This document shows, piece after piece, positions 3,325-64,000 of a DNA stretch of 64,000 nt. This DNA is from an uncultured Candidatus Saccharibacteria bacterium (GTDB lineage Bacteria; Patescibacteriota; Minisyncoccia; Phycocordibacterales; UBA918). A program made the position numbers and the translations under genes. The notes beneath the pieces were generated by a model. The model was not told the origin of the DNA. It searched no databases and saw only the letters and a list, made by a program, of their open reading frames with translations. Position 1 is the stretch's first letter. Every line of letters begins with the position of its first letter. Location of the stretch: the NCBI GenBank assembly GCA_964608605.1, contig CAZSOS010000001.1:207452-271451 (forward strand), written 5' to 3'.

Positions 3325-4002
3325 ATGGATCTCTCCCGATTCTTCAACGAAATAATGCCGCGAATGAGCGCTTTCTTAGGCGTCTTCTTCGTGGTCATGA
3401 TGATCGGCTACGGCTTTCTCTATTTCATCGACTTCGTGCCCGAGGCCCCGACCGATAACGAGGCCAAGAAAGCCGAGGAAACCGCTTCAGTCATAGAGGA
3501 AGAACCGGCGGCAGCGCAGCCGGTCATCGAGGAAACCCCTACCGTGGCTATAAATAACGATCCTTTCCCGATCAGTATCTCTCTTAGCCCTCTAGATCGC
3601 ACCGTGACCGTCCTTAATCCCGCCTCCCGCAGCGTGGCCGATCTGGATGCCGCCTTGCTTAAGGGCGTGGTGCGCCACCCGGACTCGGCCGATCTCAACG
3701 ATGAACAGGGAAATATCCTTATTCTCGGCCATTCCAGTTACCTAAAGAACGTCTTCAATAAGAACTACCAGGCCTTCAACGGCATCCAGAACCTCAAATG
3801 GGGCGATACCATCACCCTCAAGTCGAGCGACATGGAATACACCTACCGCGTGGATAGGGTATACGAGGCCAAGGCTAGCGCCGTCATGGTGCCCACCAAG
3901 GCCAGCCAGGCCAAACTCACTCTGGCCACCTGCGATACTTTCGGCGCCAAGGAAGACCGCTTCATCGTCGAAGCCACTCTGGTATCCAAAAAGCCCCTAT
4001 AA
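3325..4002 (+). CDS. sortase family transpeptidase
   Basis: N-terminal TM anchor, catalytic His in ILILGHSSY and the TLXTC Cys motif (KLTLATCDTFG) typical of sortases. Confidence 0.8.
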   Translation: MDLSRFFNEIMPRMSAFLGVFFVVMMIGYGFLYFIDFVPEAPTDNEAKKAEETASVIEEEPAAAQPVIEETPTVAINNDPFPISISLSPLDRTVTVLNPASRSVADLDAALLKGVVRHPDSADLNDEQGNILILGHSSYLKNVFNKNYQAFNGIQNLKWGDTITLKSSDMEYTYRVDRVYEAKASAVMVPTKASQAKLTLATCDTFGAKEDRFIVEATLVSKKPL

Positions 4003-6821: not shown

Positions 6822-8564
6822 CTAAAGCGAACGCGCGGATACCTTGACTTTCAAGTAGTCAGCCAGCTCGTCGGCACTGTGCTCCAGCTTGCTGCCATCG
6901 CTCATTTCCAGGGTCAACTGTCCAGACTCGGCCTCCTTGTCGCCGATGACCACGAAGGCCGGGATCTTCTGTTGCTTCACCGCCCGGATCTTCTTGCCCA
7001 AGGACTCGTTGGCGTCATCCAGCATACATCTTATACCGGCCGCCTTGAGCTTCGCGTAGAGCTCGCGCGCCGGGTCATTGTGCTTCTCCGAGACCGGCAG
7101 GATGGCTACCTGCTCTGGTGCCAACCACAGCGGAAAGCGGCCGCCTAAGTGTTCGATCAAGACGGCCGAGAAACGCTCGATCGAACCCATGATGGCGCAG
7201 TGGATCATGACGATACGCTCTTTTTCGCCCGCCTCATTGATACAGGTGAGATCGAAGCGCTCCGGCAGGTTCATGTCGAGCTGGATGGTGGCCACCTGAT
7301 GCTCGCGGCCGATGGAATCCTTGGCCATGAAGTCGAGCTTGGGGCCGTACATGGCCGCTTCGCCAGGAGCTTCGAAGTAATCGGCCTGGCGCTCGCGAGC
7401 GATGTCACGGAGCGCGTTCTCGGCGTTATTCCAGATCTCTGGGGTGCCCAAGTACTTCTCCATCTCCGACGGTTCGTGGAAGGAGAGCCGGACTCGGAGC
7501 TTGAAGCCGAAGGTACCGTAGAAGGTGTCGACAATGTCCCAGATGCGGAAGAACTCTTCCTTAACCTGTCTGTGACGGCAGAACACGTGGCTATCGTCCT
7601 GAGTGATCGAAAGTACGCGGGTGAGACCGCCCAGCTCGCCTGACTGTTCGTCGCGATAGACCATGGTGGTCTCGGCGTAGCGTTGCGGCATCTCGCGATA
7701 GCTGTGCGGCTTGCGGTCGAAGATCTGCGTGTGGTGCGGACAGTTCATCGGCTTTAAAGCGTACTCCTTGCCCTCGCGGGTACTGATGCGAAAGAGTTCG
7801 TCGGCGAACTTCTCCCAGTGTCCGGAGGTCTCGTAGAGGTCCTTCTTGGTGATGTGAGGGATGGTGACCCGCTGATAGCCATGACTTTCCCGGAGCTCCC
7901 AGATGTAGGAATCAAGAGCGTGGCGCAAGACCGTGCCCTTAGTGGTCCAAAGCGGCAATCCGGCGCCGACCAGATCGGAGAAAGTGAAGAGATCGAGTTC
8001 CTTGCCGAGCTTGCGATGGTCGCGCTCTTTGGCTTCGGCCAGCTGCTTTTCGTAGGCTTCAAGCTCGTCTTTGGTCTCGAAGGCCAGGCCATAGATACGA
8101 GTCAACATGGCGTTCTGTTCGTCGCCGCGCCAATAGGCGCCGGCCACCTTGGTGAGCTTGAAGGACGCCGGGTCGATGTCCGCGGCCGGATTCTCACTAT
8201 GTCCGCCGCGACAGAGGTCCTCGAAGTCGCCGCTCTTGTAGAGAGTGATGGTCTCCCCGCTGTTCGCGATCTCCTCTATAAGCTCTAGTTTGTAGGGATT
8301 GCCCGCGAAGATGGTCCTGGCCTCCTCGGCCAAAACCTCGCGGTGAGAGAACTCCTTCCAGGCCGGCAATAGCTTCCTCATGACCTTCTCGATGGCCGGC
8401 AGATTGGCGTCGCCAACCGGTTCGCCTCCTTGGAAGTCGATGTCATAGTAAAAGCCGGTGTCGACGGCCGGACCGATGGTCAATTTGGCGTGCGGATATT
8501 TCTGCAGCACCGCCGCCGCCAAAAGGTGGGCAAGAGTGTGGCGTTTATGTTCGAGGTTGGACAT
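6822..8564 (-). CDS. thrS: threonyl-tRNA synthetase
   Basis: 580 aa with class II aaRS core and anticodon-binding domain, ThrRS-specific motifs, and the N-terminal HxxxH editing-like second additional domain. Confidence 0.95.
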   Translation of the reverse strand: MSNLEHKRHTLAHLLAAAVLQKYPHAKLTIGPAVDTGFYYDIDFQGGEPVGDANLPAIEKVMRKLLPAWKEFSHREVLAEEARTIFAGNPYKLELIEEIANSGETITLYKSGDFEDLCRGGHSENPAADIDPASFKLTKVAGAYWRGDEQNAMLTRIYGLAFETKDELEAYEKQLAEAKERDHRKLGKELDLFTFSDLVGAGLPLWTTKGTVLRHALDSYIWELRESHGYQRVTIPHITKKDLYETSGHWEKFADELFRISTREGKEYALKPMNCPHHTQIFDRKPHSYREMPQRYAETTMVYRDEQSGELGGLTRVLSITQDDSHVFCRHRQVKEEFFRIWDIVDTFYGTFGFKLRVRLSFHEPSEMEKYLGTPEIWNNAENALRDIARERQADYFEAPGEAAMYGPKLDFMAKDSIGREHQVATIQLDMNLPERFDLTCINEAGEKERIVMIHCAIMGSIERFSAVLIEHLGGRFPLWLAPEQVAILPVSEKHNDPARELYAKLKAAGIRCMLDDANESLGKKIRAVKQQKIPAFVVIGDKEAESGQLTLEMSDGSKLEHSADELADYLKVKVSARSL

Positions 8565-8566
8565 GA

Positions 8567-8880
8567 TCGAGAGGATGAATTGATAAATGGGAACGAAAAG
8601 CGCCCGGGCAAAAATTCAGGTGTCTGAATTTTTGCCCGGGCGATCTTGATCGCGGTTCCACCGGACTTCCCGTTATACTAGTCAGACTAGTATAACGGCT
8701 TATTGGACAGATTAGGCTTAAAAGCGTCCTTCGACCCATGGGTGGTAGCCACGGCAATCTCTGTTGTAAACATCATAACCGCTAGACCGCGGTCGTCAAC
8801 CCCGTTAGAGGGTACTGGCATATACCCGCAATAGACTAGTAGGTCATTAAGCACCCTGAACAGGGCTCTCTAACGGGGTC
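8567..8880 (-). promoter_or_regulatory. putative T-box leader (tRNA-Thr responsive) of thrS
   Basis: On the minus strand, GGTGGAACCGCG matches the T-box core GGUGGNACCGCG. It sits 10 nt upstream of a strong terminator hairpin (8599-8641) followed by CTTTTCG, ~30 nt before the thrS start. A long stem I (CCCCGTTAGAGAG...CTCTAACGGGG) has an ACC triplet at the 3' side of its internal loop. Confidence 0.55.
8670..8698. repeat. 29-bp perfect palindrome CCGTTATACTAGTCAGACTAGTATAACGG
   Basis: Lies inside the thrS leader. Same core as copies at 2351 and 29995. Confidence 0.7.
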
Positions 8881-59961: not shown

Positions 59962-60032
59962 GGGCCCATAGTATAGCGGTAGAACGCCTCCATGGCATGG
60001 AGGAGGTCGGGGTTCGACTCCCCGTGGGTCCA
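59962..60032 (+). tRNA. tRNA-Ala (anticodon GGC)
   Basis: Hand-folded. Acceptor GGGCCCA/TGGGTCC with G3:U70. Anticodon loop ATGGCAT. T-arm GGGGTTCGACTCCCC. Discriminator A. No encoded CCA. The D-stem has one A-A mismatch. Confidence 0.7.
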
Positions 60033-60050
60033 CGCGGTTATGGTATTTCG

Positions 60051-60070
60051 GTGGTAGTGTTCGCGATTCG
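60051..60070 (+). repeat. 20-bp exact duplicate of the tRNA-Pro D-loop/anticodon-stem segment (GTGGTAGTGTTCGCGATTCG)
   Basis: Identical to 60101-60120 inside tRNA-Pro. Lies 17 nt upstream of the intact gene. Confidence 0.7.
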
Positions 60071-60086
60071 AGATAAAACGCATTGT

Positions 60087-60157
60087 CGGGCCGTAGCATA
60101 GTGGTAGTGTTCGCGATTCGGGTTCGCGAGGTCCGAGTTCGATTCTCGGCGGCCCGA
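60087..60157 (+). tRNA. tRNA-Pro (anticodon CGG)
   Basis: Hand-folded. C1:G72 acceptor CGGGCCG/CGGCCCG with A73, as is typical of bacterial tRNA-Pro. Anticodon stem-loop CGCGA-TTCGGGT-TCGCG. T-arm CCGAG-TTCGATT-CTCGG. Confidence 0.75.
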
Positions 60158-60209
60158 CAATGTGTTGTATCGGAAGTCCCGGGGACTTCCGTGGCTACAA
60201 CGAAGGTGT

Positions 60210-60237
60210 GGTCCGAGTTCGATTCTCAGTGGGCCAG
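60210..60237 (+). pseudogene. tRNA 3'-half fragment (T-arm plus partial acceptor) duplicated from tRNA-Pro
   Basis: GGTCCGAGTTCGATTCTC is identical to 60130-60147. No matching 5' acceptor strand is present. Preceded by the CGGAAGTCCC/GGGACTTCCG hairpin. Confidence 0.6.
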
Positions 60238-60239
60238 CA

Positions 60240-60557
60240 TCAGATTTTGATGAGTCCTTCATGTATTTCCATATGGCAATTAGCACACACGAGGATACAC
60301 TTCTCGACCTCAGCCTTTGTTTTTTCCCAAGAACGAGTCAAACCTCTGGACGATAAACCGAAATCTTTTTTGCTAGGGTCGGTGTGGTGAAATGATAAAG
60401 CACGTTTACATTTCGCATAACCACACATTCGGCATTTACCACCTCCGTACTCAATAGCCATATCCTTGAGTTTCTTTCGCCTCTTTATAACGGCCGCTTT
60501 TATATATTCGGCCCTGTCCGCATAAGTTCTTTTTTCAATTCTTCGTGGCATATACAC
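60240..60557 (-). CDS. HNH endonuclease (105 aa, free-standing)
   Basis: GTG start. CRMCGY...HH-DP...CANCHMEIH HNH/zinc-finger motif. Wedged between tRNA fragments and the intron-bearing tRNA-Asn. Confidence 0.8.
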   Translation of the reverse strand: MYMPRRIEKRTYADRAEYIKAAVIKRRKKLKDMAIEYGGGKCRMCGYAKCKRALSFHHTDPSKKDFGLSSRGLTRSWEKTKAEVEKCILVCANCHMEIHEGLIKI

Positions 60558-60657
60558 ATGTATTCTACCACAATAATCATGCTTGAATATTGAAAGAATG
60601 TGGATTTTCTGTAGAATAGACGCAACTTGGTCGATATCGCCGATCCAAGTAGTACAT

Positions 60658-61007
60658 TCCCCTGTAGCTCAGCGGTAGAGCAGTCGACTGTATGTATTGC
60701 AGCTTCCTAGGGAAACCTAGGTCGAAAAGAAGGTGAATTGTCCGAAGCGCGCAAGCGCAACGGATCCGGAACCGCAAGGTTCTAGGACTGGAAACCCAAA
60801 CGTGTAGTCGTGGGCAATCAGCAGCCAAGTCCTCAGAGTAATCTAAGGAAAGGTTCAGAGACTATCCCTAACGGGAGTAGCCGAGCAAGAAATTGCTCCA
60901 GGCGAAGCGCCTTCCACCCCTTTCGGGTGATGATATAGTCCACGCCCTTTGGAAACATCGGGATCAGTGTAATCGATTGGTCGCAGGTTCGAATCCTGCC
61001 GGGGGAG
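60658..61007 (+). tRNA. tRNA-Asn (anticodon GUU) interrupted by a group I intron between positions 35 and 36
   Basis: The 5' exon TCCCCTGTAGCTCAGCGGTAGAGCAGTCGACTGT and the 3' exon TAATCGATTGGTCGCAGGTTCGAATCCTGCCGGGGGAG splice to a canonical Asn tRNA (U1:A72, G73, loop CUGUUAA) closely matching E. coli tRNA-Asn. Confidence 0.8.
60692..60969 (+). ncRNA. group I self-splicing intron (278 nt, no ORF)
   Basis: R element GTTCAGAGACTA at 60853-60864 and S-like GATATAGTCC at 60933-60942, giving P7 GACUA/UAGUC. The 5' exon ends in U and pairs with IGS GCAG through a U-G wobble. The intron ends in G. Confidence 0.75.
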
Positions 61008-61008
61008 C

Positions 61009-61045
61009 AAATGAAAAAGCACCGTTTTGGTGCTTTTTCATTTGC
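61009..61045 (+). terminator. intrinsic terminator
   Basis: AAATGAAAAAGCACC-GTTTT-GGTGCTTTTTCATTT. Confidence 0.75.
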
Positions 61046-61192
61046 GAGCCCGGAGAAAGTGCCAGTGGCACTTTCGTCAGGATTCGAAGACCTTGCCAGA
61101 TATTTTGTGACGCAAAGAAACAAAATATCGACAAGGTGTACCGCCCATGTAATGGGAGAAATTCCTGCCGGGGAGCTGAGGTATAATTTTAT

Positions 61193-61699
61193 ATGTTAGG
61201 TTTTGTATCTATGGAATTTTTAATACTTTCCCTCGTAATACTAGGAGTAGTGGTACTGGCAGTAGTTACATTAAAGCTCTTTTCAATATCAAAGACCGAC
61301 CAACCACTCCCTTACCGAGCTAAACAATATTTCTTTTCTCGCTCGGAGCAAGAGTTTCTTAGAATTTTAAACGAATCACTCGATAGGCAACGCTTTGTGA
61401 TTTTTCCAAAAGTGAGACTTGCTGACTTTATAGAAGTGACTATTAGAGGACGTGAGTACCAAGGTTGGTTGAGTAAAATTAAATCAAAGCATGTCGACTT
61501 TCTAATTTGGGATGTTAAAAATCACAAAATAGCCTTAGCAGTTGAGTTAGACGGTAAATCCCACAACATTGAACCTATGCAAACAAGAGATGAGTTTGTT
61601 AACCGGCTATATGACAAGGTGGAAATAAGATTAGTAAGAGTCAAAGTAGGTAGCAATTTCTTGACAGAAGCAAAAATTATATCTGAATCTTTAAGTTAA
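61193..61699 (+). CDS. DUF2726-like (restriction-endonuclease-fold) membrane-anchored protein
   Basis: AT-rich. N-terminal TM, then FPKVRLADFI...HVDFLIWDV...LAVELDGKSH, which resembles the DUF2726/NERD-like nuclease fold. Confidence 0.6.
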   Translation: MLGFVSMEFLILSLVILGVVVLAVVTLKLFSISKTDQPLPYRAKQYFFSRSEQEFLRILNESLDRQRFVIFPKVRLADFIEVTIRGREYQGWLSKIKSKHVDFLIWDVKNHKIALAVELDGKSHNIEPMQTRDEFVNRLYDKVEIRLVRVKVGSNFLTEAKIISESLS

Positions 61700-61741
61700 T
61701 TAGACTGAGGCGTATACTAAGCACAATAAAACTTCTGGCTG

Positions 61742-62791
61742 ATGAAAAAGGAATTCCCTGAATTTTATAGTTTAAGTAAAGACGAGATAACCGCACTATG
61801 GGAGGGGTGCATATTCGCTTTTGATGCAAATGTCCTTCTTAATCTCTACAGATATTCTCTAGACACTAGCGATAATCTAATCTCAATCTTAAAAAATTTC
61901 TCCGACCGCATTTGGATGCCACACCAGTTCGCTCTTGAGTACCAAAGGAATCGAATGGTGGTGATAGAAGGTCAGCGGGTTAAGTACATGGGGAGTATAA
62001 AGAATATTCTAGGTGAACTGGAGGTCGTAGAGGAACTCCTAGGTAACTACTACGGGAAAATGCCTTTTGACATCAAGAAGATAAAGAATGATTTGTTGAA
62101 GTCTCAGGAAGAGTACCCTGGATGCACATCAGAGGACAAAATGCGGGAGGAAATCGACGCACTTTTCGAGAATAAGGTAGGTAGTCCTTTCGACGAAAAA
62201 AGAATGCTCGCAGTGATAGACGAGGGCAAAGAAAGATACCAAAAAGAAATGCCGCCGGGTTACTGCGACGCGTTAGAAAAAGATAAGAATGATCCCACTA
62301 AGACTCGGAAATATGGAGACCTTATTGGGTGGCTTCAAATGATCGAGAAAGCTAAAACCGAGAAGAAACCCCTTGTATTTATCACCAGTGAGCGAAAGGA
62401 AGACTGGTGGCAAATCGTAAAGGGAAAAACTGTTGGTCCTAGGCACGAATTATTGAAAGAGTTTCAGAAAGAAACTGGAGAAGCATTTCATATGTATGAT
62501 ATGAAACGCTTTCTTGACTATGCGAAAGAAAAACACACAGTCAAAAAGAAAACTATTGATGAAGTTATAAAAATTGATGAAGTGTATAATAACAGCGTCG
62601 CAAGTGAACTTGGGGTAGTTGTTGGTGGTGATACTCCCACTTTGTCAGACTATCTAGTGAACCCTGTAGGTTGGCCAATTACGGAAGCATCATCACAAAC
62701 TTCATCTGTGGAAAAGGAGTCCGCTTGGATTATTGTGCCAGAAAATGATGACGGCACAGGAAATCTGGCAACAGGTGACAGGGAACAATGA
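61742..62791 (+). CDS. PIN-like domain protein (DUF4935-type) with uncharacterised C-terminal half
   Basis: AT-rich. N-terminal IFAFDANVLLNLY (PIN strand 1 Asp), YGDLIGW and ITSERKEDWW acidic positions. 349 aa. Confidence 0.6.
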   Translation: MKKEFPEFYSLSKDEITALWEGCIFAFDANVLLNLYRYSLDTSDNLISILKNFSDRIWMPHQFALEYQRNRMVVIEGQRVKYMGSIKNILGELEVVEELLGNYYGKMPFDIKKIKNDLLKSQEEYPGCTSEDKMREEIDALFENKVGSPFDEKRMLAVIDEGKERYQKEMPPGYCDALEKDKNDPTKTRKYGDLIGWLQMIEKAKTEKKPLVFITSERKEDWWQIVKGKTVGPRHELLKEFQKETGEAFHMYDMKRFLDYAKEKHTVKKKTIDEVIKIDEVYNNSVASELGVVVGGDTPTLSDYLVNPVGWPITEASSQTSSVEKESAWIIVPENDDGTGNLATGDREQ

Positions 62792-62795
62792 ATCT

Positions 62796-63074
62796 ATGAA
62801 GACTTATTTGATAACATACGACTTAATTAAGCCGGAAACTAGCGCGGATTACGTAAAGCTTTTCGCTAATATAAAATCACATCTTGGCTGGGCCAAGCCC
62901 ATGAGATCAGTCTGGTTGATAAAAACTAACAGGTCTAGGGATGAAATCATGAAATTGTTGAGATCAGCAGGTGACAGCAATGATAAATTTTTAGTGATGG
63001 AAGTTACAAGGGAATGGATAGCTTTTAACCTTCCAGCAAGTGTCATTACATGGATGAAGGATGAGATTAAATAA
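62796..63074 (+). CDS. small alpha/beta protein (93 aa), translationally coupled partner of the PIN-like gene
   Basis: Its ATG overlaps the upstream TGA (ATGA). MKTYLITYDL...DYVKLFANIKSHLGWAKPMRSVWLIK resembles the beta1-alpha1-beta2 pattern of Cas2/VapD-like folds, but there is no CRISPR context. Confidence 0.5.
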   Translation: MKTYLITYDLIKPETSADYVKLFANIKSHLGWAKPMRSVWLIKTNRSRDEIMKLLRSAGDSNDKFLVMEVTREWIAFNLPASVITWMKDEIK

Positions 63075-63202
63075 TTTATTAAGATTTTAGTTGTTTATAA
63101 AAGTTCTAACGTCCTCCCAAGCGGTGAGCCAATAAAATCACCTTATTTTACAAGGTGATTTTTTGATATCCAAATAGGGTTCAGAACTGATATAATAAAA
63201 AT

Positions 63203-63598
63203 ATGAAATTAGATGCAATAAGCGTAACCAGCACAGACTTAGAAAAATCAGCCAAGTTCTATTCCTTACTAGGTTTTACTTTCCCTACATTTGGGAAGGA
63301 TGAAAAACATATAGAACCCCAAACAAAAAATGGCGAGGTGAGACTTATGATAGATACTGCTGATTTGATTGAAAGTATCACTGGCTCAAAACCAGTGCCT
63401 CCAAATCATTCTTCGTTTGCAATACTGTGTGAGCAACCTTCAAAAGTAGACGAGGTCTGTATAAAAATAAAAAATGAAGGGTTTGTTGTCATAAAAGAAC
63501 CTTGGGATGCATTTTGGGGACAAAGGTATGCAATTGTTCAAGACCCAGATGGTTATATGATTGATTTATTTGCACCGCTAGAAAATAGTACCACTTAG
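63203..63598 (+). CDS. VOC/glyoxalase-bleomycin resistance family protein
   Basis: 131 aa with the glyoxalase-like beta-alpha-beta-beta-beta module pattern. AT-rich. Confidence 0.7.
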   Translation: MKLDAISVTSTDLEKSAKFYSLLGFTFPTFGKDEKHIEPQTKNGEVRLMIDTADLIESITGSKPVPPNHSSFAILCEQPSKVDEVCIKIKNEGFVVIKEPWDAFWGQRYAIVQDPDGYMIDLFAPLENSTT

Positions 63599-63861
63599 TT
63601 CTGAAGAGCAATCTCCGAAAACATTTCAGAAATCTTAGAGTACTCAATATCTCTTTTAATTTGAACCCAATTGAGAGTTCTGAATGCGTCCACTAGAGGG
63701 AGCTAGTGAAAAAGACCCTTACAAAGGTCTTTTTCGTTTGCTCCGTGGGAGAGAATCCTCTCGGAAAGTTTTCATACGTGTTACCAAACCGCCGATATTT
63801 CCCCAAGAAATACTTACCGAAGCTGAATCCTTGCCACCCTGAAGTGTTAAAATAATTAACA

Positions 63862-64000
63862 ATGAAAGATATCTTTAAACTCGCCGCCGCCATCGCGATC
63901 TCCGAATTCGCCGGCATCATCGGTTCGGCGTTCACCGTTCCGGCCATTCCGGCGTGGTATGCGACTCTCAATAAGCCCGCTCTCAACCCACCCAGCTGGA
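63862..64000 (+). CDS. TspO/MBR family protein (5' partial, runs off the window end)
   Basis: AWYATLNKPALNPPSW matches the conserved TspO N-terminal motif. GC returns to the chassis level here. Confidence 0.6.
   Translation, partial: MKDIFKLAAAIAISEFAGIIGSAFTVPAIPAWYATLNKPALNPPSW

Follow-up and report, generated by a model that had tools for sequence, protein, structure and literature searches.

A candidate T-box-type attenuator with a non-canonical anticodon-reading domain upstream of thrS in a Patescibacteria genome

We analysed the region upstream of the threonyl-tRNA synthetase gene thrS in a stretch of 64,000 nucleotides (nt) from an uncultured Candidatus Saccharibacteria bacterium (assembly GCA_964608605.1, contig CAZSOS010000001.1, positions 207,452 to 271,451 of the forward strand). 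This whole stretch is called the window, and positions are counted from its first letter. Read on the minus strand, the leader occupies the interval between a gene encoding a dnaE-type polymerase and thrS. It contains the T-box core GGUGGAACCGCG at 8662-8651, and it is probably a tRNA-Thr-responsive transcription attenuator of the T-box type whose anticodon-reading domain differs from those of canonical T-boxes. The following features lie at the locus, given in the order of transcription.

12101-8847, minus strand: dnaE-type polymerase gene, stop codon TAA at 8849-8847; identity from Pfam
8800-8878, minus strand: branched hairpin CCCCGUUAGAGAG...CUCUAACGGGG, spanning the dnaE stop codon and lying outside the switch; from folding
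8772-8799, minus strand: promoter-like site, TTGACG (8799-8794), 16 nt, TATGAT (8777-8772); 10 of 12 consensus positions match
8760-8764, minus strand: 5' strand of helix P1, ACAGA, pairing with UCUGU at 8711-8707; from covariation
8755-8759, minus strand: junction strand J1/2, GAUUG, nearly invariant; from the leader alignment
8736-8754, minus strand: candidate specifier hairpin P2, 6 base pairs (bp) and a 7-nt loop, first arm of the junction; from leader comparison, covariation and RNAalifold
8716-8735, minus strand: variable arms P3 (GUCGAAGGAC, 8735-8726) and P4 (GCUUUUAAGC, 8725-8716); from folding across leaders
8707-8715, minus strand: junction strand J4/1, CUAA (8715-8712, nearly invariant), and 3' strand of P1, UCUGU (8711-8707); from alignment and covariation
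8666-8706, minus strand: linker CCAAU, purine run AAGCC, Stem III and G-AA-G; from alignment, Rfam and RNAalifold
8635-8665, minus strand: antiterminator; from the Rfam alignment, leader comparison, covariation and RNAalifold
8592-8642, minus strand: intrinsic terminator with a 19-bp stem (8642-8601), loop ACAC and U-run CUUUUCGUU (8600-8592); from folding
6822-8564, minus strand: thrS (580 amino acids, ATG at 8564), the gene that the leader would regulate; identity from Pfam

The 12-mer GGTGGAACCGCG at 8662-8651 of the minus strand is the sole exact match to GGTGGNACCGCG across the window, in agreement with the initial annotation, which had reported an exact T-box core here. It lies within a candidate antiterminator. 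The 5' side of this structure consists of A1 (UCCGG, 8665-8661), the bulge UGGAACC (8660-8654) and A2 (GCGAU, 8653-8649); after the loop CAAG, the 3' side is formed by the second strands of A2 (AUCGC, 8644-8640) and A1 (CCGGG, 8639-8635). The terminator hairpin and the U-tract that had been described are present: the hairpin starts 8 nt past the core, and 36 nt separate the end of its stem from the thrS start codon. The 5' strand of the terminator is shared with the 3' strands of A2 and A1, so that the two folds are mutually exclusive, as had been proposed for an alternation around a UGGA bulge. Their predicted stabilities are -35.0 kcal/mol for the terminator versus -9.8 kcal/mol for the antiterminator. 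A weak antiterminator set against a strong terminator is the usual T-box layout, in which tRNA is needed to compete. Upstream of the antiterminator, Stem III of the window has 13 bp (8698-8686 with 8682-8670) and the loop CUG. In the family of related leaders described below, it is preceded by a purine run with the consensus AAGYG, that is, the RRRxG motif, and followed by (G)AA, where AA is invariant. The purine run of the window reads AAGCC, its final G being replaced by C, which lengthens Stem III.

Related loci were collected by a scan with the ThrS protein as query, taking one genome per species, which yielded 80 loci (L001-L080), the best being 76% identical. Almost all of these loci bear the label Patescibacteria, Paceibacteria, Parcubacteria, Kaiserbacteria or (Candidatus) Saccharibacteria, and the closest relatives, at 76% identity, come from Patescibacteria, Paceibacteria and Kaiserbacteria genomes; the suspected Patescibacteria-like origin of the DNA is thus confirmed by the ThrS relatives. 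At 41 of the 80 loci, the motif GGUGGAACC(G/A)C(G/C) lies upstream of thrS, at a distance of about 95-325 nt. The 7-nt bulge UGGAACC between A1 and A2 is invariant in all 42 leaders, and every parsed relative has an equivalent terminator. The pair at the base of A2 is G-U in 23 of 33 leaders, G-C in nine and A-U in one; the window has G-C (8653 with 8640). The variable base N of UGGN is A in each of the 42 leaders, and therefore U73 is predicted in tRNA-Thr(GGU).

The leaders follow a common plan. The 5' part comprises the promoter, NCAGA-GAUUG, P2 with the loop N-Y-A-C-C-A-M, one or two variable hairpins and CUAA-UCUGN. In the 3' part these are followed by a short linker, AAGYG-Stem III-(G)AA, CUCGG-UGGAACC-GCGGU...AUCG(U/C)-CCGAG, and the terminator with its U-run. 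The promoter pattern TTGACN-16/17-TAnnAT was found in 29 of the 34 parsed leaders, where 6-10 nt separate the end of the -10 hexamer from P1. In the window, transcription is predicted to start at about 8765, at P1.

The candidate sensing domain comprises the 58 nt at the 5' end of the predicted transcript (8764-8707), where the 5-bp helix P1 closes a junction; folded alone, this domain adopts the junction fold. P2 is formed by CCGUGG (8754-8749), the loop CUACCAC (8748-8742) and CCAUGG (8741-8736). The loop carries a candidate threonine specifier, ACC at 8746-8744, and an invariant A at 8743. In all 36 junction-type leaders upstream of thrS this loop reads N-Y-ACC-A-M, where ACC and the following A are invariant. 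A threonine specifier ACC had been predicted for the leader; the codon was right and the location was wrong, the proper candidate lying 65 nt further downstream. The region after P2 is 19-63 nt long; of 34 leaders, 23 fold it into two adjacent hairpins and 11 into one. The nearly invariant strands GAUUG and CUAA may together build a tertiary motif by which P2 is oriented or the codon-anticodon helix is contacted.

Covariation was assessed for the structure consisting of P1, P2, Stem III, A1 and A2 in a MAFFT alignment of 33 full leaders. In the structure as a whole, 93.2% of cells are in standard pairs, and 16 of 26 pairs show compensatory changes. The covariation score is 0.453, versus a mean of 0.193 for column-shuffled alignments (none of 500 scored as high) and 0.05-0.12 for controls with slid partners. 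In P1, 98% of cells are paired and three of five pairs are compensatory, the changes being from CAG/CUG to CGG/CCG, CUGG/CCAG and GGG/CCC. The corresponding values are 95.5% and five of six pairs for P2, 86.2% and all four tested pairs for Stem III, and 96% and three of six pairs for A1. RNAalifold, which was given no prior structure, recovers P2, Stem III, A1 and A2. When the closing helix is set in another register, AGAUUG/UAAUCU, compensatory changes are missing and one pair has seven mismatches; NCAGA/UCUGN was preferred.

A covariance model (R1) was made from the 33-leader alignment and used to search the window and the 80 loci, 0.76 Mb in total. It produced 42 matches, each directly upstream of thrS. 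The copy in the window (8765-8633) scores 87.4 bits with E = 2.5e-17, which places it within the lower third of the family.

The remaining relatives differ in their upstream regions. No T-box leader was found at 39 of the 80 loci (L012, L018, L023, L026, L027, L032, L034-L037 and others), two of which have too little upstream sequence to judge. In those that were examined, thrS begins a few nucleotides past a TATAAT-like box and has no other leader, and its mRNA appears to be leaderless or nearly so. Since about half of the related loci have no leader, the switch is patchily distributed within the group. Five loci (L060, L061, L062, L077 and L080, at about 3760-3940) form a minimal subfamily in which a single 4-bp hairpin presents UCAC(C/U)AC in a 9-nt loop. 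It is followed by the linker, Stem III and the antiterminator and terminator, while P1, P3 and P4 are gone. In L060 and L062 the loop reads UCACUAC, and ACC is replaced by the synonymous threonine codon ACU. The records of this subfamily are labelled 'uncultured Gammaproteobacteria'; their ThrS proteins are 62-64% identical to the Patescibacteria query. Finally, the thrS leader of a Kaiserbacteria locus (L033, 2995-3087) has an intact discriminator and terminator and scores 42.9 bits with R1, but in its 5' region neither a junction nor a hairpin with ACC can be recognised; this leader represents another variant or else a copy that has degenerated.

The ThrS protein of the window lacks the N-terminal TGS domain and opens at the editing/SAD region, with HxxxH near residue 7. 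In most bacterial threonyl-tRNA synthetases (ThrRS) the TGS domain is present at the N-terminus. The ThrS proteins of the relatives align from residues 1-4, and the absence of the domain is therefore a trait of the lineage and no truncation.

Taken together, these data suggest that the leader at 8764-8592 of the minus strand is a tRNA-Thr-responsive transcription attenuator of the T-box type with a non-canonical anticodon-reading domain; we assign this interpretation a probability of roughly 0.85. The initial annotation had proposed a T-box-type, tRNA-sensing leader for thrS, and this proposal is borne out by the core, the antiterminator, the terminator and the conservation of the family. As the leader scores below the Rfam T-box gathering threshold and has none of the canonical Stem I motifs, it is considered a variant class rather than a standard member. 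Inferences in this reading are the binding of tRNA, which triplet acts as the specifier, in which direction regulation runs, and whatever part GAUUG, CUAA, P3 and P4 may play.

The proposed mechanism is as follows. Transcription would start at the conserved promoter immediately before P1, and the first 58 nt would fold into the P1-closed junction. P2, as the first arm of this junction, would show the threonine codon ACC and the invariant A in a 7-nt terminal loop that is similar to an anticodon loop. Uncharged tRNA-Thr(GGU) would pair with ACC by its anticodon and with UGGA of the bulge by its free 3' NCCA end. This pairing would stabilise the antiterminator (-9.8 kcal/mol) against the terminator (-35 kcal/mol), and RNA polymerase would continue into thrS. 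Charged tRNA-Thr would be unable to stabilise the antiterminator, and transcription would stop at 8600-8592. The consensus of the tRNA anticodon loop is Y32, U33, positions 34-36, R37 and A38. Since N-Y-NNN-A-M fits this consensus, P2 is proposed to be a mimic of the anticodon arm that offers a codon for loop-loop contact with GGU. The pairing of ACC with GGU includes two G-C pairs, and strong codon-anticodon pairing has been argued to be the reason why glycine T-boxes manage without Stem II (PMC7583486).

However, several observations weigh against this interpretation. At the gathering score, the Rfam T-box model RF00230 has no match in the whole window or in 15 relatives. A permissive search of 551 nt gave 26.5 bits versus the gathering score of 93, with E = 5.6e-4. 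In that sub-threshold alignment Stem III, the bulge, A1 and A2 fit correctly, and 84 Stem I positions of the model are deleted. Inspection of the 36 leaders revealed no K-turn or GA motif, no AG bulge with a distal loop, no specifier S-turn, no Stem II and no IIA/B pseudoknot; in the inspected leader alignment, no 3-nt bulge with tandem G-A/A-G pairs adjoins P1. A tertiary equivalent of the S-turn or the pseudoknot may be built from GAUUG and CUAA. The minimum-energy fold of the whole leader, computed for the single sequence, differs from the junction fold. The window departs from the family in the G-C pair at the base of A2 and in AAGCC at the RRRxG position. Neither the window nor the 80 thrS loci contain a tRNA-Thr gene in which the predicted discriminator base could be checked. 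Finally, R1 found no copy before any gene other than thrS in the 0.76 Mb searched. A pattern scan of metagenome contigs for members with the same 5' domain and a second codon base other than C gave 11 matches, all of which are due to chance or, in one case (L089), represent an ordinary Firmicute-type T-box; the P2 pairing is present in none of the 11. Because no member was found upstream of another gene, the specifier is assigned from its invariance and one synonymous change, not from covariation between codon and gene.

This restriction to thrS is also the first argument for the alternative that survives best, although we consider it unlikely. According to it, a true T-box discriminator makes up the 3' half, whereas the 5' junction is bound by a protein, for instance ThrRS, or is a mere scaffold for folding, and ACC is no specifier. 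In E. coli, the loops of the thrS operator carry the anticodon of tRNA-Thr, bind ThrRS and block the ribosome. The resemblance of P2 to an anticodon arm would fit such a role, and so would the conservation of GAUUG and CUAA, for which the codon-reading model has no settled explanation. However, mimicry of tRNA-Thr directed at ThrRS requires the threonine anticodon (NGU), whereas the loop contains the codon ACC. Moreover, an ACC with a purine after it is exactly what marks a T-box specifier, the sole variation seen is the synonymous ACU, and a T-box discriminator requires some means of selecting a tRNA.

A canonical T-box at this locus, as suggested by the initial annotation, is very improbable. 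In that model the hairpin at 8878-8800, which overlaps the end of dnaE, is Stem I, the triplet ACC at 8813-8811 lies in its internal specifier loop, and thrS is controlled through transcripts that read through from dnaE. Such a hairpin does exist and is stable (-36.4 kcal/mol, z = -3.96), and it contains AGAGAG and ACC. However, this ACC does not stand at the edge of an internal loop: in the minimum-energy fold it is paired, in GGGUAU/GUACCC. The hairpin ends exactly where the -35 box begins, and thus precedes the conserved sigma-70-like promoter at 8799-8772, which 29 of 34 relatives share. It has an equivalent in none of the 41 homologous leaders, the Rfam alignment places no Stem I at 8878-8800, and a separate, invariant ACC loop sits within the conserved leader. 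Given its position upstream of the promoter, its absence from the 41 leaders and the pairing of its ACC, thrS is not regulated as a dnaE read-through via this stem. The hairpin has no U-run, and several relatives carry an ordinary terminator in its place; it may be a structure of the dnaE 3' end or an insulator.

An equally small chance is left for the possibility that no tRNA-dependent switching occurs in this genome, the leader being a decaying or constitutive terminator, or the 12-mer a chance resemblance to a T-box. Three features of the window copy could be seen as signs of decay: its low position among the R1 scores, the G-C pair that replaces G-U at the base of A2, and the purine run AAGCC where the family has AAGYG. 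However, this copy retains every helix and every invariant base, and the G-C pair is shared by members of the family (9 of 33). A constitutive terminator of -35 kcal/mol before an essential gene would be deleterious. As for chance, an 11-base match is expected about 0.03 times in the window by our arithmetic, and the single exact match that was seen lies in this leader. The least credible alternative is a ribosome-stalling attenuator with a leader peptide: a TTG-initiated open reading frame of 70 amino acids (8757-8545) crosses the leader, where the window reads CUACCACC with tandem ACC ACC codons, but the region changes by compensatory base pairs and not by codon-preserving substitutions, and the tandem threonine codons are not conserved, as the relatives read CUACCAA and similar sequences.

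At the other end of the window lies a tRNA cluster with an intron-split gene. A tRNA gene at 60658-61008 of the plus strand, directly after the genes for tRNA-Ala(GGC) and tRNA-Pro(CGG) at 59962-60158, is split within its anticodon loop by a group I intron about 278 nt long (Rfam RF00028, 53 bits, 60667-60962); the intact gene was missed by ARAGORN. When spliced on paper after ...CUGU the product is tRNA-Asn(GUU), and when spliced after ...GACU it is tRNA-Thr(UGU). The threonine assignment is disfavoured by the P1 pairing of the intron, CUGU/GCAG. As this pairing has a U-G wobble at the splice site, tRNA-Asn(GUU) is favoured, and the G discriminator base agrees with it. The G+C content falls from about 0.55-0.60 to 0.40-0.44 across the last 4 kb (60001-64000), the drop beginning at the tRNA cluster, and this end of the window may be an island inserted beside the tRNA genes.

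In textbooks, T-boxes exemplify an mRNA that reads a tRNA; they are held to be essentially Gram-positive. The thrS leader places a T-box in Patescibacteria, ultra-small episymbionts in which gene regulation is almost unstudied, and its family is invisible to Rfam-based annotation. If the proposed reading of the anticodon holds, a conserved discriminator can be coupled to an anticodon reader much simpler than that of any transcriptional T-box described. This bears on how little is needed to recognise a tRNA when elbow stacking, the K-turn and the Stem II S-turn are all missing. The leader could also serve as a concrete marker for whether Patescibacteria, which must take up amino acids from outside, monitor the charging of threonine. 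A natural, compact switch responding to tRNA could become a regulatory part for organisms that lack such tools, and riboswitches have been named as candidate tools for Patescibacteria (PMC11665869).

A bolder hypothesis, on which our judgement is evenly divided, is that these leaders form an undescribed T-box class, apparently confined to thrS in Patescibacteria of the Paceibacteria/Kaiserbacteria type. In this class, Stem I, the K-turn and Stem II would be replaced by a mimic of the anticodon stem-loop that 'kisses' tRNA-Thr, seated in the junction that P1 closes or, within one sublineage, pared down to one hairpin joined to the discriminator. If so, it would be the smallest natural transcriptional T-box known, and tRNA-sensing riboswitches would extend to the candidate phyla radiation with its reduced genomes.

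Compared with known systems, the 3' half of the leader is the conventional one. A T-box discriminator is defined by A1 and A2 with the 7-nt bulge and by a Stem III flanked by RRRxG...AA, and its listed features include a G-U wobble at the base of A2, which acts as a steric sensor of the aminoacyl group (PMC7583486). The discriminator half of the thrS leader family agrees with this definition. The G-U sensor pair occurs in 23 of 33 members, and the window has G-C there. The phyla in which T-boxes have been reported are Firmicutes (more than 95%), Actinobacteria, Chloroflexi and Deinococcus-Thermus, with two deltaproteobacteria (PMC2494555); the Patescibacteria host lies outside this set. A full-text search, which does not cover the entire literature, found no publication on T-boxes together with Patescibacteria, the candidate phyla radiation or Parcubacteria.

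The class I transcriptional T-boxes of Firmicutes (RF00230; for example thrS, tyrS and glyQS of B. subtilis) share with the thrS leader the T-box sequence, the 7-nt UGGNACC bulge between A1 and A2, Stem III bordered by purines, a mutually exclusive intrinsic terminator and an aminoacyl-tRNA synthetase gene as the target. The type of the specifier is also the same, an NNC codon (here ACC) followed by a purine, and Stem II is absent from glyQS as it is from the thrS leader. In contrast, the Firmicutes leaders have a long Stem I with a K-turn at its base, an S-turn specifier loop inside it, and an AG bulge and distal platform for the tRNA elbow, none of which was found here. The codon stands instead in the 7-nt terminal loop of a 6-bp hairpin, which is an arm of the P1-closed junction.

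The translational thrS operator of E. coli likewise includes a hairpin of the thrS leader that resembles an anticodon arm and has a 7-nt loop. Unlike that operator, the loop considered here contains the complementary codon ACC, and it is joined to a T-box discriminator and a terminator.

The closest parallel for the position of the codon is provided by the actinobacterial ultrashort ileS T-boxes (M. tuberculosis, N. farcinica), whose short Stem I carries the specifier in its terminal loop (bioRxiv 10.1101/2023.02.28.530422). A terminal-loop specifier is known only from these ultrashort ileS T-boxes, and the class II model of TBDB is applied to Actinobacteria only. The likeness extends to the absence of a distal elbow-binding platform and to the limitation of the family to one synthetase gene within its phylum. 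The ultrashort ileS T-boxes are translational, act by sequestration of the Shine-Dalgarno sequence, recognise tRNA-Ile (AUC), retain a K-turn, and rely on a Stem II S-turn and a IIA/B pseudoknot, which support the duplex of codon and anticodon (PMC7583486). The thrS leader, unlike them, has an intrinsic terminator and the codon ACC, and its P1-closed junction with variable arms takes the place of Stem II and the pseudoknot.

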